Part shown: in pieces, positions 2,566-37,188 of the stretch
Position numbering within the stretch: the first letter of the stretch is position 1
Layout: each line of letters begins with the position of its first letter
Source: Candidatus Tayloriibacteriota bacterium
GTDB lineage: Bacteria; Patescibacteriota; Minisyncoccia; Phycocordibacterales; PALSA-1337
Assembly: GCA_903857825.1 (NCBI GenBank)
Contig: CAIOGI010000006.1
Span: forward strand, 25,132 to 89,131
Length of the DNA: 64,000 nucleotides
Direction of reading: 5' to 3'
The notes under the pieces: model-generated
Told to the model about the DNA's origin: nothing
Databases searched by the model: none
The model's input: the letters and a program-made list of their open reading frames with translations, nothing else
Made by a program: the position numbers and the translations under genes

Positions 2566-2763
2566 TAGTTTAGTGTATAAGAAAAAAGGGCAAAAGAAAA
2601 GCCGAGAGGGTGAACTACCTTCACATTAAGATGGGGATGAATCTGTATTTTGAAGTGTTAGAGACGCAACACAACAACTACATCCATTCACGGGCTCAAG
2701 AGCCTAACCAGCCCCAAACTTACCTCTCGACTATTCATCTATCATATCATGTATTCATTCCTG

Positions 2764-2834
2764 AGCCAAATGTGAGAATCGGACTCACATTCCCGCTTTA
2801 CGAAAGCGGTGTTCTACCATTGAACTAATTTGGC
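2764..2834 (-). tRNA. tRNA-Thr (anticodon CGT), 71 nt, no encoded CCA
   Basis: Hand fold of the minus strand gives acceptor GCCAAAT/ATTTGGC (7 bp), D arm GTTC-AATGGTA-GAAC, anticodon stem CCGCT/AGCGG with loop TTCGTAA and T arm GTGAG-TCCGATT-CTCAC. The listed + ORF 2610..2828 overlaps it and is spurious. Confidence 0.85.
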
Positions 2835-3101
2835 AAAAGGTGCCACTGAAATCCGAGACAAGTACACCTCGTTATAGTTACGGGCACTCACTCCGGAGAC
2901 ATGGTATGTTTGGCCCATGCCAGAGTTACTTATGTCTCACAGCCTAGGTATTGTAACCAATTATGCCGAAAGACTTCAGTGGCTTTTTTATATTAACATT
3001 TTATATTCAATTTGCCATTAATCTTTTTACATCTCACCTCCCTGTCACCTCCCTAGCCAAAACTTCATTTTTCTGATACAGTAAAAAACACAAACACTAG
3101 T

Positions 3102-4640
3102 ATGACAAAGGTAATTAAGGACAATTCAGCTAAATTAATTAAACGACCCCCAGTTGTAGTTATTATGGGTCATATTGACCATGGTAAGTCAACACTTCTA
3201 GATTATATACGAAAAGCAAATATTGTTGACGGTGAAGCTGGAGGTATCACCCAACATCTCGGCGCATACGAAGTAAATCACAAAACCAGCGAAGGAAAAG
3301 AAGGTAGAATAACTTTTCTTGACACACCAGGCCACGAAGCCTTCTGCAGTATAAGAGAGCGAGGTGCTCAAGTTGCTGATGTTGCCATACTCGTTGTCTC
3401 TGCCGAGGATGGAGTGAAGCCACAGACTCTTGAAGCATTAAAATGCATTTTGCTAGAAAAAATTCCATATGTAGTAGCAATAAATAAAATTGATAAAGCC
3501 GGAGCAGATATAGAAAAAACAAAGCAGAGCCTTGCAGAGAATGAGGTATATGTTGAAGGTTATGGTGGAGATATTCCTGTATGTGCAATTTCTGCTTTAA
3601 ATGGTGAAGGAATCGCAAATTTATTGGATATAGTCCTACTAGTCACTGATATGCTAGATCTAAAAGCAGATACGAATGCTAAAGCAGAGGGTTCTATAAT
3701 AGAAGCAAAACTCGACAGCAAAAAAGGAATTTCAGCAACATTACTGATTAAAAATGGAACTTTAGAATCAGGTCAGTTCGTTGTTGCAGGAGATTCTCTA
3801 TCCCCAGTTAGAATATTCGAAGACTATCAAGGTAAAGCTATAAAAAAAGCTAGCTTTTCAAGTCCAGTGAAAGTTATTGGTTTTAATAAAATACCAATAG
3901 TTGGAAGTAGATTTGTCACCTGTCTTAATAAAAAAGAGGCTGAAGAAACTGCAAAGAACTTTACAGAAACACACAAAGCAAAAGCTAGCGTGAATAGCTC
4001 ATATACCAGAAGAGATGAAAACGACACAACTGTAATTATCCCAATTATCATTAAAGCTGATGTTGTGGGAAGTCTCGAAGGCATAAAGCATGAATTAGTA
4101 AAGATAAAAAATGAAAAAGTAAAGATAAAAATAGTTTCAGAAAGTATTGGTAATATAAATGAAAATGATGTAAAGACTGTTCAGGGCGATCCAAATATTA
4201 TAATAGTAAGTTTCAATACAAGAATAGACTCAAAAGCTCAAGGGACAATAGAAAGGTCAAATATTAAAATAAAATCCTTCGACATAATATACAATCTAGT
4301 TCAATTCTTAAAAGACGAAGTTACTTCAAAAATTCCAAAAGAATATATTGATGAAATATCAGGAACTGCCAAAATTTTAGCCATTTTCAACAAAAGTAAA
4401 GACAAACAAATACTAGGTGGAAAAGTACAAATTGGCACACTCAATATAGGTTCTGAAGTAAAAATACTTCGTCGAGATATGGAAATAGGCAGAGGAAGGA
4501 TAAAAGAGCTTCAATTACAAAAAGTTAAGGCAACTGAGGTAAATGAGGGCTATGAATTTGGTTGTATGATAGAGTCAAAGATCGAGATCGCTCTCGGTGA
4601 CAAGGTGCAGGGATTTGTCACTGTGGAGAAGAAAGTGTAA
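3102..4640 (+). CDS. infB: Translation initiation factor IF-2 (short form lacking a long N-terminal region)
   Basis: G domain motifs VVIMGHIDHGKSTLLD, DTPGHEAF and NKIDK; rbfA is directly downstream. Confidence 0.9.
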   Translation: MTKVIKDNSAKLIKRPPVVVIMGHIDHGKSTLLDYIRKANIVDGEAGGITQHLGAYEVNHKTSEGKEGRITFLDTPGHEAFCSIRERGAQVADVAILVVSAEDGVKPQTLEALKCILLEKIPYVVAINKIDKAGADIEKTKQSLAENEVYVEGYGGDIPVCAISALNGEGIANLLDIVLLVTDMLDLKADTNAKAEGSIIEAKLDSKKGISATLLIKNGTLESGQFVVAGDSLSPVRIFEDYQGKAIKKASFSSPVKVIGFNKIPIVGSRFVTCLNKKEAEETAKNFTETHKAKASVNSSYTRRDENDTTVIIPIIIKADVVGSLEGIKHELVKIKNEKVKIKIVSESIGNINENDVKTVQGDPNIIIVSFNTRIDSKAQGTIERSNIKIKSFDIIYNLVQFLKDEVTSKIPKEYIDEISGTAKILAIFNKSKDKQILGGKVQIGTLNIGSEVKILRRDMEIGRGRIKELQLQKVKATEVNEGYEFGCMIESKIEIALGDKVQGFVTVEKKV

Positions 4641-9346: not shown

Positions 9347-9494
9347 GGTAAGTGCCCATAGATGTTTTGGTAGACTTAGACCATATGTAGATCTTAGTTT
9401 GATAATATACAATTAAATAAGTATTGCGCCCATAGCTGTTCTGGTAGGCCCAGAGCATATGGACATCTTAGCTCGACAAGATACAATTAAATAA
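9347..9494 (+). pseudogene. Two tandem degenerate copies (about 74 bp each) of the tRNA-Lys 5' region: pseudo-tRNA fragments
   Basis: Unit 1 is GTGCCCATAGATGTTTTGGTAGACTTAGACCATATG...ACAATTAAATAA. Unit 2 is GTATTGCGCCCATAGCTGTTCTGGTAGGCCCAGAGCATATGG...ACAATTAAATAA. Both align to the genuine GCATTGCGCCCATAGCTCAGTTGGTAGAGCAG. Confidence 0.6.
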
Positions 9495-9499
9495 GCATT

Positions 9500-9572
9500 G
9501 CGCCCATAGCTCAGTTGGTAGAGCAGATCCCTCTTAAGGATAAGGTCGTAGGTTCGATCCCTACTGGGCGCA
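9500..9572 (+). tRNA. tRNA-Lys (anticodon CTT), 73 nt
   Basis: Acceptor GCGCCCA/TGGGCGC, D arm GCTC-AGTTGGTA-GAGC, anticodon loop CTCTTAA and T arm GTAGG-TTCGATC-CCTAC. The 3' 20 nt (TACTGGGCGCACAAGTGAGG) are repeated at 9631..9652. Confidence 0.8.
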
Positions 9573-9698
9573 CAAGTGAGGAAAAAGAGGTTTACCTCTT
9601 TCATTCCGAACGCAGTCGCCCATCACGAAGTACTGGGCGCACAAGTGAGGGTTGGAGAATTTATCTTCTTTGATCCAAGCTTAATAGAATAGAAACAT

Positions 9699-9780
9699 GC
9701 GCGGGTGGCGAAATTGGCAGACGCACTTGCCTTAGGAGCAAGCGGGGTAACCCTTGGAGGTTCAAGTCCTCTCCCGCGCA
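9699..9780 (+). tRNA. tRNA-Leu (anticodon TAG), 82 nt with long variable arm
   Basis: Acceptor GCGCGGG/CCCGCGC, anticodon stem CTTGC/GCAAG with loop CTTAGGA, variable arm CGGGGTAACCCTTG and T loop TTCAAGT. The 3' 18 nt are repeated at 9914..9933. Confidence 0.85.
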
Positions 9781-9789
9781 CAGAATAAT

Positions 9790-9818
9790 AAAAGACTGGA
9801 TAAATCCAGTCTTTTATT
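9790..9818 (+). terminator. Rho-independent terminator after the tRNA pair
   Basis: AAAAGACTGGA-TAAA-TCCAGTCTTTT followed by ATTATT: perfect 11-bp stem flanked by an A-tract and a T-tract. Confidence 0.7.
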
Positions 9819-9840
9819 ATTACTAGTATTTGCGATTAGG

Positions 9841-9933
9841 ACTTGAAAGACGGAGGACACGGAGGTGTCCGAGTCGGGGTCGCAGGCGAGCCTAACAAGG
9901 CGAGACCTGTGACCAAGTCCTCTCCCGCGCACT
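9841..9933 (+). pseudogene. GC-rich tRNA-like remnant ending with a duplicate of the tRNA-Leu 3' end
   Basis: ...GGAGGTGTCCGAGTCGGGG... resembles a tRNA 5' half. The terminal CCAAGTCCTCTCCCGCGCAC matches the tRNA-Leu(TAG) 3' end at 9762..9781. No complete cloverleaf can be folded. Confidence 0.45.
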
Positions 9934-10208
9934 GATATGTAAAATAAGCATAACTTTAGTTATGCGTTTTTACATTTATGAGGGCTTGAAGGCTAAAGCT
10001 ATACCAAGTTACTCCATGATTTAAGCCATATTTTATGTGCTTTCTTTGGCTATAATTTTAAACCCCGTTTTGCTATTGACATCTATATCAATATATGCTA
10101 GTATAACTATCAGACAGTTCCCCAAAACAAACCTAGATGCCTGTGTTGGGTATCAAGGTAAATATAACAATTCAGTGTGGGGAGTTGCCAACGGAGAAAG
10201 AACACACC

Positions 10209-10844
10209 ATGACAGTAAATGAAATCTTTGCCACGACAGCGACGGTTGCAGCCAGCGTTGTCCTAATGCTGGCATCCCAGCGCTACCAATCGTGGGAGGC
10301 TGGGAGGTGGCAAAACAAAGGACTCGACATGGCTCGAGTGACAAACAGTCCTGTGGCGATGGCGCCTACAAGCGTAACTCCCCCAACGGTAACTTACGTC
10401 ACAAACACAATCACCACACCCGCAACGCCTGCCGTGGTGGTGCCAACACCCCCACCAGTGACGGTAACCAACACAATCTTTACGACAAACGTCGTGGTGG
10501 TTACCACAACAAACGTGGCATCGGTAGCCTCACCGGTTAGAACAGGAACAACACCGAGTGGTGTGACCTGGCCTAATGATCGCTTGTCTGACAGGGTTGT
10601 CAGTTACAACAGCGTCACGAATGATGTAGTAACTGTCCCCCCGGGAGAAACTTTTCTCCTCGAGCCAGCAACTAAGCTCGATCTCAGTACGGCCTTCAAC
10701 CGCCAACTCCGATTCGCAAAGGCGGGGCAAGAGTTAGTGGCTGGCATGAGTAGCCCATACTTTCGTTCGCTTCCGGGGCCAACGACAGTAATGAACCCCG
10801 GATCGACGCCGATCCAGCTGAAGGTTCGAGTTACCCGACGGTAG
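10209..10844 (+). CDS. Membrane-anchored Thr/Pro/Val-rich hypothetical protein encoded on a GC-rich (about 52%) island
   Basis: GGAG Shine-Dalgarno 9-12 nt upstream of ATG at 10209. N-terminal hydrophobic anchor ATTATVAASVVLMLA, then TPPTVTYVTNTITTPATPAVVVPTPPPVTVTNT.... The GC content is far above the roughly 33-37% background. The listed ORF starts at 10137, but there is no RBS there. Confidence 0.6.
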   Translation: MTVNEIFATTATVAASVVLMLASQRYQSWEAGRWQNKGLDMARVTNSPVAMAPTSVTPPTVTYVTNTITTPATPAVVVPTPPPVTVTNTIFTTNVVVVTTTNVASVASPVRTGTTPSGVTWPNDRLSDRVVSYNSVTNDVVTVPPGETFLLEPATKLDLSTAFNRQLRFAKAGQELVAGMSSPYFRSLPGPTTVMNPGSTPIQLKVRVTRR

Positions 10845-10883
10845 CCGAACCCTGCGCGAGAACACCTCGCGCTAAACCAAAAA

Positions 10884-10927
10884 AGGACAGGAGTGCCATC
10901 ACATGTGGCCCCTGTCCTCTTTCTTTT
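10884..10927 (+). terminator. Rho-independent terminator after the GC-rich island gene
   Basis: AGGACAGG...CCCCTGTCCT hairpin followed by CTTTCTTTT. A second hairpin GCGCGAGAACACCTCGCGC lies at 10854..10872. Confidence 0.55.
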
Positions 10928-10948
10928 ACATAAATTATATTTATAAAA

Positions 10949-14924: not shown

Positions 14925-17408
14925 TTATAAACAGATAAGTGAAGCCAACGAATCCCCATCTCGGAGTTTCATCACTCTCACGCCCTGTGTTGAACGTCCA
15001 AGTGTAGGAATTTCAGAAAGATTTACACGGATAACCTGACTCTTCTTTGACATAGCTACCATTTCTTCTATCTCATCCGTAACAACCTTTGCAGCAATCA
15101 ATGGACCAGTCTTGTCAGTAACATTCATAGTTAGAATACCTGAACCACCACGGTTCTGAACTTTGTATTCATCAAGTTTCGTCTTCTTTCCATAGCCGTG
15201 CTCACCCATTACGAATAGTTGTGGATTCTTTGCATCCTTTGGCACAATATCGGCACTAATCACAGCATCATCCTTACCAAGCTTTATAACGCGTACACCA
15301 GCGGCATTTCTACCCATTTCGCGAACATCACTTTCCTCAAATCTGATGGACTGACCATCTCGTGTAGCTATAACAATATTATCATCCTTAGAGACGAATG
15401 AAGCTGACATAAGTTCATCTCCATCGTCTAGAGTAATAGCTATAAGACCAGAACGTCGTACATCGTGGAAATGCTTTGCTGAACTTTTCTTTCCTGTACC
15501 ATTCTTCGTAACCATCATAAGTGCAAGATTTTCTGCCTCCTTTTTATTCTTTGGCATTGGCAAAATAGAGGTGATCTTTTCCCCTTCAGCAAGCGACAAG
15601 AAATTCATAACTGACTTCCCTCTTGTTGACTTTTTTCCTTCTGGAATATCGTACATTTTTATCTGATATGCCTTTCCCTTATCAGTAAAGAACAAAATGT
15701 CATTGTGTGAACTAGCATATATAAGGTGTGTAATAAAATCCTCCTCCTTTGTATCTAGATCTACAACACCAACACCACCTCGCTTCTGCTGTTTGTATTC
15801 ATCAGGATTTGTACGCTTTATATATCCTCCTTTTGTAAGTACAAGCACGCTTTCTTCATCGGCGATTAGATCCTCAGGATTAAAGTCCTTGAGAGTATGT
15901 TTGATGAGTCTGGTTCTTCTTTCATCACCATATTTAGCCTTAATCTCAACAAGCTCATCTTTTATAATATTTCGTACCTTTCTATCACTTCCTAGAATTT
16001 CCTTTAGTTTTTCTATAAGTTCCTGAACTTCTTTTAATTCTTCTAATACTTTTTTTCTTTCAAGACCTGCAAGCTTTTGCAAACGCATTTCGAGAATAGC
16101 TGTAGCCTGCTTTTCTGAGAACCTAAACTTCTTCATCAAATTTGCATGTGCCTCAATAGCATCCTTTGATCCACGAATCAAAGTAATGATCTCATCGATA
16201 TGATCAAGCGCCTTCTTCAAACCAATAAGTATATGTTCTCTTTCTTCAGCCTTATTTAAATCAAACTTTGTACGTCGGCGTATAACCTCGATTCTGTGAG
16301 TTATGAATTCTTCAAGAAAAGTCTTGAGGGCAAGCGTCTGTGGTACACCATGCACAAGAGCAACCATGTTTACATGGAATGTTTCTTCTAATTGAGTGTG
16401 TTTATATATATAATTTAGAACCTTTTCTGGGTATGCTCCGTTCTTTAAATCTATAACAATCCTAAGTTCCTTGTCGGACTCATCTCTAAGGCCCTTTATG
16501 CCATCTACAAGCTTTTCTCGCACAAGATCAGCGATACGCATAATAAGCTCAGCTTTGTTAACACGATAAGGTATAGAGGAAATAATGATCTGGAATTGAC
16601 CCTTCTTGTCTTCAACTATCTCTGCCTCCCCACGTACTAGAATACCTCCGCGACCAGTAGAATATGCATGATGAATGTCTTTTTCACCATACATGATACC
16701 TCCAGTTGGAAAGTCCGGACCTTTTATAAACTGTAATAGATCGTTAGTTGTAGCGTCTTTGTTTTCAACAAGATGAACAGTGGCATCAATGACTTCTCCA
16801 AGATTGTTTGGTGGAATATTTGTCGCCATACCGACAGCAATACCTAGTGTTCCATTTAAAAGAAGATTCGGCACCGTAGTAGGAAGTACAGTAGGTTCAT
16901 TTCTAGTGCCTTCATAGTTTGGTCGGAAGTCTACAGTGTCCTTATCAATATCTCGAAGTGTTTCTTGAGCTATCTTTGACATCTTTGCTTCGGTATATCT
17001 ATCGGCTGCGGCATTGTCTCCATCAATAGAACCAAAGTTTCCCTGACCTATAACAAGCGGATAACGCATACGAAAATCCTGTGCCATGTTTACCATACTT
17101 TCATATACAGCAACAGTCCCGTGAGGGTGATAGTTACCTGTCACGTCTCCAACGATCTTTGCTGATTTTCTAGTCTTAGCACCAGCTGTTAGTCCGAGTT
17201 CATGAAGAGTAAAGAGTATTCTTCTGTGTACAGGCTTTAATCCATCTCGAACATCTGGAAGTGCACGGTTAGTGATAACTGACATTGCATAATCTAGATA
17301 AGACTCGCGCATTTCAGTGCTTATATTTCTCGCGATAATTCCCTCTCTTGGATCTCTCGGTGTGGGTTCCTGATTATTCTTATCTGATGCTTCGGGTTTT
17401 TTAGACAT
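14925..17408 (-). CDS. gyrA: DNA gyrase subunit A (type IIA topoisomerase A subunit)
   Basis: [26 protein letters not shown]; catalytic Tyr region [15 protein letters not shown]; C-terminal beta-pinwheel repeats. GyrA versus ParC cannot be separated with certainty. Confidence 0.85.
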
Positions 17409-17505
17409 GGTTTTCTAGTGATTTTCTATTAAATAATTCGGATTTTTATAAATTTTTATGTGTATATTATAGCAAATTTTAGCTTTTTTGTCGTGGGGAA
17501 AAGGG

Positions 17506-17535
17506 TTGACAATACTTAATTGTAATGATAGAAAT
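17506..17535 (+). promoter_or_regulatory. Candidate sigma70-type promoter driving the GC-rich segment
   Basis: TTGACA at 17506..17511, a 17-nt spacer, then a TAGAAA(T)-like -10 box. Confidence 0.4.
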
Positions 17536-17680
17536 ATCTGGAACACAGCGAACGTCTTGCTGTAAAAAGCACAAAGAAACACAGTACTGCATGCAAAAAG
17601 ATAAAGAGAGTTGGCCACCGCTTCCCGGTGATTTTCTTCAATTTCGTATTCCATCTCGCCCCAAAGGGAAATACTGGTAT

Positions 17681-17914
17681 ATGGATGTTGAACTCCTTCG
17701 GAATCACGAATTTGTTACCCTCCGTGGAAAGGAGGTGCACAAGCTCCCCTTACCCAAGAACAGACTTGAGATGGATCGTCTGGTCATGACTACTGCCAAA
17801 CTGCTCGTCGCTTCGGCTGGCTTGCGGATCATCAAATGGTCACACACCATTGACGACGGCGAGATCTATGTCTTCCGTCTCGGCCCAAAAGGAACACGTA
17901 GGAAAGTGAAGTGA
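17681..17914 (+). other. GC-rich (about 50%) segment spanning about 17560..17995, containing an ORF (77-129 aa depending on start) that may instead be a structured RNA
   Basis: Compositional contrast with flanks. The ORF ends ...LRIIKWSHTIDDGEIYVFRLGPKGTRRKVK, faintly RelE/ParE-like. There are also GC-rich hairpins (CCTCC-GTGGAAA-GGAGG), two CTTCGG motifs, and T-tracts at 17925 and 18000. Confidence 0.35.
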
Positions 17915-18114
17915 CGCCCTTGCTACCTTTTTTAATACATCACCTCGCCCCAGCAATCACCCCGCTCGTCGTAGCTCACAAGCTGCCACGGTGGGGTCTT
18001 TTTTTATTTAAATACTATTTACAACAACACAAGAGTTGTGTCGTAACTCAAATCTTTATCATTCCTTAATAATTTCTTTAGAACTTCTTAATAACTTTTT
18101 GCTAATCTAATGAA

Positions 18115-18540
18115 ATGAATGAAAAATATTTTAAAGATTTTGATAAATGGAATAATAAATCTAAAGAGATTGAATCAAAAGAGTTCGAGAACTTCTTTTA
18201 TGCTCGAGAAATCTGGTGGTGTGCTTTAGGCGTGAATATTGGCTCAGAACAAGATGGCAAAAATGATTCATTTGAAAGACCTGTATTGATTGTTCGACGA
18301 ATAAGTCGGGACTCGTGCATAATTTTACCATTCACAAGTAAAATTGTTGATAGTGACTATCGCGTAACTACAGAGAGCACCGGTATTCAAGCACAAGTCG
18401 TATTATCTCAAATAAAGACAATTAGCAGTAAGCGTCTATTAAGGAAAATAGGAAAAATTAAAACAATAATATTTTATGAGATACTAATAAAATTATCATT
18501 TATAATACTTGGTGTTTTGAAAGACGAAACCCCACCATAA
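18115..18540 (+). CDS. PemK/MazF-family endoribonuclease toxin (type II toxin-antitoxin toxin)
   Basis: EIWWCALGVNIGSEQDGKNDSFERPVLIVRRISRDSCIILPFTSKIVD...VLSQIKTISSKRLLRKIGKI matches the PemK/MazF pattern. No antitoxin-sized ORF is evident immediately upstream. Confidence 0.75.
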   Translation: MNEKYFKDFDKWNNKSKEIESKEFENFFYAREIWWCALGVNIGSEQDGKNDSFERPVLIVRRISRDSCIILPFTSKIVDSDYRVTTESTGIQAQVVLSQIKTISSKRLLRKIGKIKTIIFYEILIKLSFIILGVLKDETPP

Positions 18541-18548
18541 AGGTGGGG
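18530..18548. terminator. Stem-loop CCCCACC-ATAAA-GGTGGGG at convergent gene ends
   Basis: Perfect 7-bp GC-rich stem between the + gene ending at 18540 and the - gene ending at 18613. U-rich only on the minus-strand side. Confidence 0.45.
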
Positions 18549-18612
18549 AATCTCGGAGCCCGAAGGCGGCAGTGCTATTATTATATACCCTTAGAATATA
18601 CTGTCAACCACC

Positions 18613-18921
18613 CTATCTACTCCCCGCTTCGACAGTCACATTGTCCTTCGAATATTCTGCTTTATTTGATCCAAAAAGAAGATTCTTTATATCAGACCAA
18701 GCACCAAAGGCAGATGCGGTTAGAGAGGATACTGGTGTTTCAACTATTACCTCCTCACCATCTTTAATAACATTTTCAGCAATTACTGAAGAGGAATTAA
18801 AACCATAAGATGCCATCCAGCCAGCAAAAACTAAAAATGTAAATGAGAAAGAAACAATAAAAGCAAAACGCTTCTTTACGTGATGAGGTTTTGTTTTTAA
18901 ATTTTCTAAATAGTCATTCAT
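18613..18921 (-). CDS. Small hypothetical membrane protein (102 aa)
   Basis: One TM helix FAFIVSFSFTFLVFAGWMA; no motifs. Confidence 0.4.
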   Translation of the reverse strand: MNDYLENLKTKPHHVKKRFAFIVSFSFTFLVFAGWMASYGFNSSSVIAENVIKDGEEVIVETPVSSLTASAFGAWSDIKNLLFGSNKAEYSKDNVTVEAGSR

Positions 18922-36104: not shown

Positions 36105-36200
36105 ATGGGTTGACTACAAGAAGGGGCTTGATATGATATGAGTACAGTCGTCCTTAATTGGACTGCCGAGATTCCCCGCCATTTGGCGGGGTTTCGCTTT
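36105..36200 (+). ncRNA. Candidate small transcript: promoter-like TTGACT-16nt-TATGAT followed about 60 nt later by an intrinsic terminator
   Basis: TTGACT at 36105, TATGAT about 16 nt downstream, and hairpin CCCCGCC-ATTT-GGCGGGG followed by TTTCGCTTTTTTT at 36170..36200. This could equally be just the bidirectional terminator for the KilA-N gene. Confidence 0.25.
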
Positions 36201-36206
36201 TTTTGT

Positions 36207-37049
36207 TTACTTATTATTTTTTAATGTTTCAAATCTCTTTGAAACACTACTACTGGTTAATACTCTCATTTGAAAAATACATATACTGTTTAGCTTAACA
36301 AGTCTTTCTTCTTGTGACATATTAGTTCGAATATATTCAGCATTAATACTTTCAATATTTGATAGCACAAGTAGTTGCTCAATAGTCGCATAATCTCGAA
36401 CATTTCCTTCTTTGTCCTTATTTTCGTTACGCCATTGTTTTGCTGTTTTTCCAAATAGAGCAACATTCAAGATATCTGCTTCATCAGCATAAATATAGTT
36501 AATTTGTTCCTTTGTAATATTGGTTGGAATAATATTTTCCTTAATTGCTTGTGTTTGTAGTTTGTAATTCAATTTTGATAAAATACGATTTATATTCCAA
36601 TTAAGTGACAATGCTTGATTTTCACCATCTTTTAATCTTTGAAATTCTTTTATTAAGTACATTTTAAAACCTGGACTAAGCCATGTACCAAACTCGAAAG
36701 CTATATCTTTGTGTGCATATGTTCCTCCCCCATATCTTCCAGCTTTTGACTTAATGCCAATTGCCTTTGTTGCGGTAATCCATTTTTTAGGAGTTAAACG
36801 GAAACTATTGAGTCCAGCCTCCTTCCTAAAGGTGTCGAATTCGACACCTTTAAAATCTAAATTGTGTATTTGCTCCCAAATACCAAGGAACTCCAGTGTA
36901 TTTCGATTTCGCATCCACCCATAAATCAAATCCTCACCACCAAACTTTTTAGCCATATCTGTGAGACATATATAATCCCCAAAACTATCGGATATTATTG
37001 TTATCTCAGAGCCCTGCACGTTTATATGCGATTTTGTATCTTTTTTCAT
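36207..37049 (-). CDS. KilA-N domain-containing protein (phage antirepressor-like N-terminal DNA-binding domain)
   Basis: ITIISDSFGDYICLTDMAKKFGG...LIYGWMRNRNTLEFLGIWE matches the KilA-N/APSES-type fold pattern, followed by a C-terminal domain of unknown function. Confidence 0.6.
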   Translation of the reverse strand: MKKDTKSHINVQGSEITIISDSFGDYICLTDMAKKFGGEDLIYGWMRNRNTLEFLGIWEQIHNLDFKGVEFDTFRKEAGLNSFRLTPKKWITATKAIGIKSKAGRYGGGTYAHKDIAFEFGTWLSPGFKMYLIKEFQRLKDGENQALSLNWNINRILSKLNYKLQTQAIKENIIPTNITKEQINYIYADEADILNVALFGKTAKQWRNENKDKEGNVRDYATIEQLLVLSNIESINAEYIRTNMSQEERLVKLNSICIFQMRVLTSSSVSKRFETLKNNK

Positions 37050-37188
37050 ATTTTGTTTAATTATCTTAATAATTTGCATACTTTAACAAAAAGTTCTTAA
37101 GAAGTTTTAAAGAAATTATTAAGAAATGATAAAGATTTGAGTTAGAAAATGAAATACGAGAACTGTAAATATTTTTTAGTATAAAAAT

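Follow-up and report, generated by a model that had tools for sequence, protein, structure and literature searches.

The GC-rich block upstream of gyrA is, on balance, probably a recently acquired orphan gene unit, which encodes a small basic protein and combines an ancestral slot promoter with a terminator of its own. We analyzed it within a stretch of 64 kb, referred to here as the window. In the same interval lies a MazF-like gene, and comparison of its relatives indicates that a conserved small RNA of about 55 nt, convergent in orientation, accompanies this apparently solitary gene. The convergent small RNA is a better lead than the GC-rich block itself. For the block, we propose that a promoter already present upstream of gyrA in the ancestor would now transcribe about 465 nt of foreign DNA with a GC content of about 50%. 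The transcript would consist of an A-rich leader lacking a Shine-Dalgarno sequence, an ORF of 107 residues starting at 17591, and a 3'UTR of 90 nt, the strong terminator of which may also insulate the MazF-like cassette downstream.

Predicted anatomy of the GC-rich block

The block is contained in a gap of 1204 nt between the start of gyrA and a gene for a 102-aa protein (Table 1). The closest relatives of the gyrA gene of the window come from genomes that carry the label Candidatus Taylorbacteria, Paceibacteria or Patescibacteria, with at most 94% identity over the first 400 residues. The GC content of the block is 0.50 (17560-17995) or 0.52 (17608-17998), compared to an average of 0.36 for the window and 0.24-0.25 for the two flanks (17409-17540 and 18006-18114). 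GC islands are few in the window, and the others correspond to tRNAs, to parts of coding genes, and to a second GC-rich orphan ORF.

Judged by its sequence elements, the region of about 17541-18005 represents a single putative transcription unit, in which a promoter is followed by an A-rich leader, an ORF of 107 codons, and a 3'UTR with a terminator. Transcription is predicted to start at about 17541, and the promoter is divergent from that of gyrA (17494..17466, minus strand). A simple consensus promoter scan missed the block promoter because its -10 element lacks a T at position 6. The missing Shine-Dalgarno sequence of the ORF is uninformative and normal for this genome, since a Shine-Dalgarno-like match of any kind precedes only 6 of the 45 genes in the window; the A-rich start context of the ORF is similar to that of native genes. 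The frame is open from 17525 to 17914 (129 aa); ATG codons in the same frame also occur at 17591 and 17681, which would give products of 107 and 77 aa, respectively. As the ATG at 17525 lies inside the promoter, 17591 would be the first usable start codon.

The terminator is located 45-90 nt 3' of the stop codon, and its hairpin (17959-17997) has a predicted energy of -24.7 kcal/mol (RNAfold); a weaker T6 tract is found at 17928-17933. The block also contains direct repeats of CNYCTCGSCCCA, a pattern that was defined post hoc. The first two copies extend to 22 nt, of which 19 are identical, and lie in different codon phases. With lengths of 12-22 nt, the copies are dispersed, being 224 and 65 nt apart, and neither the window nor the related loci (1.4 Mb) contain any more. 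A transcript of the block would carry three CNYCUCGSCCCA repeats ahead of both terminator and toxin gene. The main elements had been picked out by a first-pass annotation of the same DNA, and we confirmed the promoter TTGACA-17nt-TAGAAA(T), the block of about 50% GC at 17560-17995 with its AT-rich flanks, the T-tracts at its end (17928-17933 and 17999-18005), and an ORF of 77-129 aa, depending on which of the three ATGs is chosen.

Table 1. Coordinates of features in and around the GC-rich block; positions are those of the 64-kb window.
Feature	Position	Strand	Details
gyrA	14925..17408	-	
Sigma-70-type promoter (predicted)	17506..17535	+	-35 TTGACA 17506-17511, 17-nt spacer, -10 TAGAAA(T) 17529-17535
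A-rich leader (predicted)	17541..17590	+	about 50 nt, GC 0.39, no Shine-Dalgarno sequence; window-specific (foreign) DNA starts here
ORF for a 107-residue basic protein	17591..17914	+	taken from the ORF list; pI 10.2, 12.6 kDa
Three short direct repeats CNYCTCGSCCCA	17652..17952	+	copies start at 17652, 17876 and 17941
3'UTR with intrinsic terminator (predicted)	17915..18005	+	about 90 nt; 16-bp interrupted hairpin 17959-17997, then T7 at 17999-18005
Promoter/operator region of the MazF-like cassette (predicted)	18050..18114	+	TCTTTA-type repeats, extended -10 TGCTAATCT (18100-18108)
MazF/PemK-like endoribonuclease gene	18115..18540	+	141 aa, GC 0.31; adjoins the block, lies outside it
Convergent small-RNA gene (predicted)	18519..18607	-	promoter TTGACA-16-TATAAT 18607..18580; RNA of about 58 nt, 18576..18519
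Gene for 102-aa protein	18613..18921	-	

Coding potential and RNA structure

We found a compositional signal of coding type in the ORF. Its GC contents at the three codon positions are 0.57/0.37/0.52 and T is scarce at codon position 1, which is roughly what genes of genomes with a GC content of about 50% would show. The 3-nt periodicity in the phase of the ORF is significant (chi-square P = 0.017, GC2 dip P = 0.002; 20,000 shuffles), at a level below that of native genes (chi-square of 15 compared to a median of 35). On its own, the open frame is not significantly long (P = 0.074 against dinucleotide shuffles). Between contigs of the species, we counted 0-1 base differences within the block, and population variation therefore gives no dN/dS information. 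Since the ORF protein has no homologue in the protein collections searched, conservation cannot confirm coding either, and for the same reason the coding call rests on periodicity, gene-like anatomy, and a single-sequence fold of moderate confidence rather than on homology. Two further observations count against a gene unit: the 22-nt direct repeat occurs in two codon phases, which is unexpected from a duplication at the protein level, and the -10 hexamer is imperfect.

Searches for an RNA gene were negative. Rfam 15, including RNase P, tmRNA, SRP and 6S, gave no match to the block at gathering scores in a scan of the whole window, and no match within the block at E values up to 10 with permissive filters over 17300-18800; ARAGORN detected no tmRNA in the block. 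The region as a whole folds with z = -2.1 on the plus strand, which is due entirely to the terminator region, as only 17915-18008 folds better than shuffles (z = -3.67). The ORF body (17541-17914, 374 nt) reaches z = -0.66 on the plus strand and -0.39 on the minus strand against dinucleotide-preserving shuffles, and six 120-nt windows inside it range from -0.82 to +0.91 on the plus strand. AAGGAGGTG is present at 17729-17737, where it adjoins a CCTCC (17719-17723)/GGAGG (17731-17735) pair, and CTTCGG occurs at 17696-17701 and 17811-17816. These motifs had been regarded as features of a stable RNA. They need no RNA explanation because they are ordinary in-frame codons: GGA-AAG-GAG-GTG reads G-K-E-V, CTT-CGG reads L-R, and GCT-TCG-GCT reads A-S-A.

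The block as a known structured RNA is thus not supported. The first-pass annotation had left the choice between a horizontally acquired small gene and a structured RNA. The former part is supported by the insertion, the composition, the periodicity, and the absence from relatives, whereas the latter is not supported, given the empty Rfam and ARAGORN searches and an ORF body lacking excess folding energy. Among the checks that it had also proposed, the codon-periodicity test turned out positive in the ORF frame, while the Rfam search, the search for a protein homologue, and the folding analysis of the body came back without support for a known RNA, a known protein, or excess structure outside the terminator region, respectively.

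The predicted protein and its candidate relatives

The protein encoded by the ORF appears to belong to no known family. A word-indexed search of 5.8 billion clustered proteins and a full HMMER search over 1.84 billion representative proteins each matched only the ORF itself, and no match or domain was obtained with Pfam (E up to 10), NCBIfam, PHROGs or PADLOC. The ORF is found on 33 contigs, evidently from one species, and its sequence is identical across contigs from many samples; ERZ1426739, ERZ27313523 and ERZ18659942 are among the samples with such contigs.

Several candidate relationships were considered and rejected. A phmmer search against all PDB sequences (E up to 10) returned a single chain, the multicopper oxidase 3g5w_A (E = 0.18, 15 bits). 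Other multicopper-oxidase structures are also present in the PDB and would presumably have been matched if the likeness were real. We treated the match as a chance one, and rejected a multicopper oxidase or cupredoxin fragment, because no other member of the family appeared at E = 10 and neither a Pfam profile nor a tblastn match in plasmids backs it. The idea of a fragment of a GyrA C-terminal blade arose from weak tblastn and BLASTP matches, the latter covering 15 residues of the GyrA of the window (E = 0.024), and from Foldseek matches to GyrA. It was discarded because, against a profile of the GyrA C-terminal domain built from 72 domains (71 from relatives and that of the window), the ORF reached 0.1 bits, no better than shuffled sequence and less than several of 1000 shuffled copies.

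AlphaFold2, run without an alignment, gave a poor model for the 107-aa form (pLDDT 48). For the C-terminal 77 residues, it predicted a beta-beta-alpha-beta-beta arrangement with a pLDDT of 65.8 and 38 residues at 70-90, a model that may be taken as weak support for a foldable protein. Foldseek searches of the PDB and of viral structures gave no significant match with these models, which are of low to moderate confidence. A faint resemblance of the C-terminus to RelE/ParE toxins had been suggested earlier. The ORF protein is indeed of similar size, and its C-terminus shows two beta strands with hydrophobic residues at alternating positions, after which basic residues follow; however, its predicted element order is beta-beta-alpha-beta-beta. 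The suggestion failed in every search: RelE, ParE, HigB and YoeB were matched neither in Pfam or the PDB at E up to 10 nor in NCBIfam, PADLOC or the Foldseek comparison with the PDB. A MazE/AbrB/PemI antitoxin, an idea derived from the same predicted arrangement, was rejected as well on finding no support in Pfam, the PDB or Foldseek. The charge of the protein (22 K+R compared to 12 D+E), together with the predicted small alpha/beta fold, suggests that it could be a nucleic-acid-binding accessory protein.

An insertion slot upstream of gyrA

In order to place the block in its genomic context, we compared the gyrA-upstream region with that of related loci. In six of them (L003, L005, L008, L010, L017, L019), the distance between the end of the 102-aa gene and the start codon of gyrA is 79-162 nt. 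The same gap measures 446-678 nt and holds a different small gene in six others: a three-helix membrane protein of about 90 aa in L012, L014, L015 and L018, an ORF of 177 aa on the opposite strand, taken to be NYN-like, in L021, and an unrelated ORF of 138 aa in L013. The block and its ORF are absent from all 162 related or MazF-bearing loci examined (1.4 Mb), and we found no related sequence of the block beyond near-identical copies from the same species. Because gyrA and the 102-aa gene are adjacent in related Taylorbacteria, the block and the MazF-like gene appear to lie in species-specific inserted DNA. The differing slots of the relatives and the lack of the block in all 162 loci further indicate that the site upstream of gyrA is an insertion hot spot and that the block is species-specific.

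The promoter seems to have a different history from the DNA that it precedes. On the strand opposite gyrA, TTGAC is invariant in eight aligned genomes, and the counterpart of the TAGAAA of the window in the alignment is TAGAGT/TAGAAT in L015/L018, which precedes the start codon of the membrane-protein gene by 9 nt; in these two relatives, the orthologous promoter drives that gene. Similarity to the relatives stops just past the -10 element. Based on these alignments, the block promoter is in all probability ancestral to the slot and not foreign. At the other end, the promoter/operator region of the MazF-like cassette resembles, by blastn, stretches that immediately precede candidate ORFs in L003, L008 and L016, several of these ORFs being on the same strand. 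As similarity to relatives ends after the -10 element and resumes at about 18050, the foreign block would extend from about 17541 to 18045.

We obtained nothing relevant from blastn against phages and plasmids, from tblastn against plasmids, or from a viral-contig scan, and detected no integrase or significant terminal repeats at the block. Two terminal inverted-repeat arms of 27 nt (17543-17569 and 18015-18041) are 70% complementary. We do not regard them as a mobile-element signature, because, as we estimate, chance would yield about four such pairs in 1.3 kb.

The MazF-like gene and its convergent small RNA

The product of the gene downstream of the block matches PemK_toxin with 49.6 bits (Pfam gathering cut-off 23.1; E = 5e-13) and the PHROG "MazF-like growth inhibitor" (E = 6e-17). 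We gathered 97 tblastn matches to this protein from related genomes and metagenomes. The upstream neighbours of these homologues are unrelated to each other and were read as dprA, uvrB, rpoB, rpoC, ligA, pth, SMC, and others. No recurrent small partner ORF was found upstream among 72 non-redundant homologues, none of which has the block, and a GC-rich upstream segment is not general at the loci of the 97 matches. Both MazF-like paralogues of the relative L019 have GC-rich orphan ORFs upstream.

The gene had been described as a solo MazF-like toxin; its assignment to MazF was confirmed, but it is not alone, since a predicted small-RNA gene lies convergent to it. The promoter of the latter agrees with the consensus at 12 of 12 positions and is located just past the stop codon of the MazF-like ORF; the RNA overlaps the final seven codons of this ORF. 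Its predicted parts are a short GCC-UUCG-GGC hairpin, a long hairpin with bulges, and a U-tract. Of 94 MazF-like loci, 42 have a strict promoter pattern, compared to 1.7% of random 260-nt windows. We built a covariance model, R1, from eight of the small RNAs. It scores the RNA of the window with 26.3 bits (E = 1e-6). Among the 85 evaluable homologues, 63-67 (about 75-80%) have a match to the model on the convergent strand at their 3' end, with E values down to 3e-27. Only three matches occurred in 1.03 Mb of gyrA-centred loci, two of which adjoin MazF-like genes. In twelve of the 14 modelled base pairs, both partners vary, and pairing is seen in 96.7% of cells; the alignment was fitted to the model, which favours such counts.

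No Rfam family matches the small RNA, and a literature search found no description of it. To our knowledge, an RNA-controlled MazF-family toxin module of this layout, which the small RNA would form if it is the antitoxin, has not been described. The covariance model detected no copy of the small RNA inside the GC-rich block. Elsewhere in the window, a related element (36110-36205, plus strand), which has the motif CCGAGAUUCCCCGCC...GGCGGGGUUUCG in common with it, faces a KilA-N-domain gene in convergent orientation.

Comparison with known systems and alternative explanations

Moron-type accessory units, known from phage and genomic-island biology, are orphan genes of atypical composition that bring a promoter and a terminator of their own. 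The block shares with them a single small ORF between a promoter and an intrinsic terminator, a composition far from that of the host, restriction to one lineage with absence from the same site in close relatives, and the lack of detectable homologues. It differs in having no phage or mobile context in the phage, plasmid and viral-contig collections searched, and in a promoter that appears to be that of the ancestral slot instead of being imported.

While we lean towards an acquired gene unit, the block might instead be inert or decaying foreign DNA that was caught at the insertion hot spot, the open frame and the periodicity being left from a donor gene. Accidental transcription from the ancestral promoter might then occur without a function in the organism. 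We consider this possible, although rather unlikely. It would account for the restriction of the block to one species-level lineage with almost no diversity, for a composition that has not drifted towards that of the host, for a periodicity below that of native genes, and for a frame that, like that of a 5'-truncated gene, is open as far as the left-hand edge of the foreign DNA; the hot spot gathers other unrelated inserts, too. However, a real fragment of a donor gene should have relatives among the 1.84 billion representative proteins, and none was found. Furthermore, the unit looks complete, with a native-like A-rich leader, a stop codon, and a matching strong terminator, and the sequence is identical on contigs from many samples. 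We regard it as improbable that the product is a non-coding RNA of about 465 nt with an incidental ORF. A GC-rich island with promoter and terminator in an AT-rich genome is the classic signature in searches for structured RNAs, and the z of -2.1 for the whole region on the plus strand, an ORF without a protein homologue, and internal nucleotide repeats in different codon phases all fit such an RNA. Against it stand the lack of any Rfam family even at E up to 10 and of a tmRNA, the origin of the z-score in the terminator region, with the body at -0.66 and its 120-nt windows above -0.9, the agreement of the 3-nt compositional phase with the ORF, and the ordinary in-frame codons formed by AAGGAGGTG and CTTCGG.

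The position of the block also raises the question of whether it belongs to the toxin gene. In the plan that type III toxin-antitoxin loci follow, a promoter, tandem repeats, and a terminator precede the toxin gene (PMC3401426). Like ToxIN, CptIN and TenpIN (PMC3401426), the locus analyzed here has a promoter (17506-17535), a non-toxin segment with short repeats, a palindromic terminator (17959-18005), and a toxin gene of the Kid/MazF superfamily (from 18115). In contrast to these systems, there is no tandem array in the block according to Tandem Repeats Finder (minimum score 30), which reported only 18065-18097; the repeats of the block are dispersed and embedded in an ORF with codon periodicity, and the toxin matches PemK/MazF and not ToxN, its homologues lacking such an upstream segment. 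In the type II systems mazEF and pemIK, as here, a small ORF on the same strand lies directly upstream of a MazF/PemK-family gene. Unlike in those systems, the upstream protein is basic and without a match to MazE/AbrB/PemI, the two genes are 200 nt apart with a strong terminator and a separate promoter between them, their compositions differ, and homologous toxins have no upstream antitoxin gene. That the block is a partner of the toxin, either as a new upstream protein antitoxin in the manner of mazEF or as a type III-like RNA antitoxin, therefore seems very unlikely to us, even though both layouts agree with its location directly upstream of a Kid/MazF-superfamily gene, the order of promoter, RNA with three short repeats, terminator and toxin resembles the type III plan (PMC3401426), and the two MazF-like paralogues of L019 have upstream GC-rich orphan ORFs as well. 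Unrelated housekeeping genes, and never the block, are found upstream of the 72 non-redundant homologues, and the conserved partner appears to be the convergent small RNA instead. In addition, the block has no tandem array, its GC content of 0.50 differs from the 0.31 of the toxin gene, the toxin gene has a predicted promoter of its own past the terminator, and the energy of a duplex between the small RNA and the block is no better than that of shuffles (P = 0.79). The MazE-type antitoxins known to us are acidic, whereas the ORF protein is basic (pI 10.2) and shows no match to MazE/AbrB. By analogy with type III antitoxins or with a new protein antitoxin, the block might also act as a third, lineage-specific component in a MazF-like module under RNA control, where either the transcript or the basic 107-aa product would bind or decoy the endoribonuclease; we give this idea equally little credence.

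Implications for Taylorbacteria

By itself, the block is of little weight, as it adds one more orphan gene to the accessory genome of a bacterium of the candidate phyla radiation (CPR). It does call for caution, as in an AT-rich genome the presence of a promoter and a terminator around a GC-rich island does not suffice to infer a structured RNA. Coding and structured-RNA cases are told apart by codon-phase composition and by folding tests from which the terminator is excluded. The surroundings of the block define what appears to be an insertion hot spot upstream of gyrA in Taylorbacteria, which would be served by an ancestral divergent promoter. Overall, our results suggest that the apparently antitoxin-less MazF-like genes of Taylorbacteria are accompanied by a conserved convergent small RNA in about 75-80% of homologues. 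If this small RNA is the antitoxin, it would make up an RNA-controlled toxin module of the MazF family.

A convergent small RNA at the 3' ends of MazF-like genes

A conserved small-RNA gene (see table below) converges on the MazF-like gene of the window from its 3' side, and the same gene recurs directly downstream of MazF-like genes in loci L083-L162. It has a TTGACA-16-TATAAT promoter, and its RNA of about 55-58 nt often overlaps the stop codon of the MazF-like gene. The RNA has two hairpins, GGC-UUCG-GCC and a long bulged one of the terminator type, as well as a U-tract. With R1, a covariance model built from eight of these convergent RNAs, we found matches beside 63-67 of the 85 MazF-like homologues. 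The background was only three matches in 1.03 Mb of other, gyrA-centred loci, two of which also adjoin MazF-like genes. Covariation was seen at 12 of 14 base pairs, in an alignment fitted to the model and hence favouring such counts. No Rfam family corresponds to this RNA, and no publication on it was found in a literature search. For MazF-family genes without a protein antitoxin, this RNA is a candidate antitoxin or regulator.

Another small-RNA-like element, related to the first, is likewise convergent with its neighbour, a KilA-N-domain gene, and directly adjoins the stop codon of that gene. It comprises, in this order, TTGACT-16-TATGAT, a GUCC...GGAC hairpin, CCGAGAUUCCCCGCC-AUUU-GGCGGGGUUUCG and U7. 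A similar match in another locus (L052, 6560-6618) abuts a 123-aa gene from a different family.

Coordinates of the features described here, in the window unless a related locus (L-number) is named
Feature	Position	Strand	Remarks
Small-RNA gene	18519-18607	minus	convergent with MazF-like gene, at its 3' end
Second small-RNA-like element	36110-36205	plus	related to MazF-associated RNA; R1 E = 0.07
KilA-N-domain gene	36207-37079	minus	KilA-N E = 6e-20
Gap between gyrA and 102-aa gene	17409-18612		same gap in L003-L021
CNYCTCGSCCCA, three copies within block	17652-17663, 17876-17887, 17941-17952		
Second GC-rich island	9430-10940		GC up to 0.6
Orphan ORF, 235 aa	10137-10844		in second GC-rich island
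L019 regions with GC-rich orphan ORFs	1-440, 2590-3240		
Promoter/operator layouts	18050-18114; L003 ~4220-4260; L008 ~2630-2690; L016 ~3470-3545; L019 540-596 and 3330-3387; L023; L039; L013		

Variable gene content upstream of gyrA

Taylorbacteria have an insertion hot spot between gyrA and the 102-aa gene. In six relatives the two genes are 79-162 nt apart. In six others the distance is 446-678 nt, and this longer gap contains a gene for a protein of about 90 aa with three transmembrane segments (L012, L014, L015 and L018), a 177-aa ORF (L021) or a 138-aa ORF (L013). A conserved promoter, divergent from that of gyrA, serves all of these ORFs except the one in L021. Inside the GC-rich block of the window, the direct repeat CNYCTCGSCCCA occurs three times; no further copy is present in the rest of the window or in the related loci (1.4 Mb). 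Of the three copies, two extend to 22 nt, in different codon phases.

Comparison of the window with L002, which represents the same species in another sample, revealed only four differing positions in 9 kb. One of these (G to A at 18215) turns the conserved Trp of the EIWW motif of the MazF-like protein into a stop codon, and another (C to A at 16703) is located within gyrA; on the L002 contig, gyrA is called as two separate ORFs. Each of the two changes is either a genuine inactivating variant or an error of assembly.

Further GC-rich orphans and shared upstream layouts

The window harbors a second GC-rich island with an orphan ORF, the T/P/V-rich product of which has one predicted transmembrane segment and no match in Pfam or PHROG. 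This ORF has a TTGACA promoter of its own and a terminator. The island adjoins tRNA-Lys and tRNA-Leu. Duplicated tRNA 3' fragments (~9430-9470, 9610-9650 and 9840-9930) look like integration scars.

In L019, a related Taylorbacteria genome, GC-rich (0.45-0.57) orphan ORFs are located directly upstream of both MazF-like paralogues. None of these ORFs matches Pfam; a terminator follows one of them, as it does in the window. The arrangement may be coincidence, or such toxin cassettes and GC-rich orphans may accumulate at the same sites.

Upstream of unrelated candidate ORFs in the window genome and its relatives, two promoter/operator layouts recur, one with TCTTTA-type repeats and the final element TTTTGCTAnnnT, the other with GATTTTATC repeats and the final element GGATTTTATCTCGGTTTGGTAGG. 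Both layouts suggest that a pool of gene cassettes is under common regulation.
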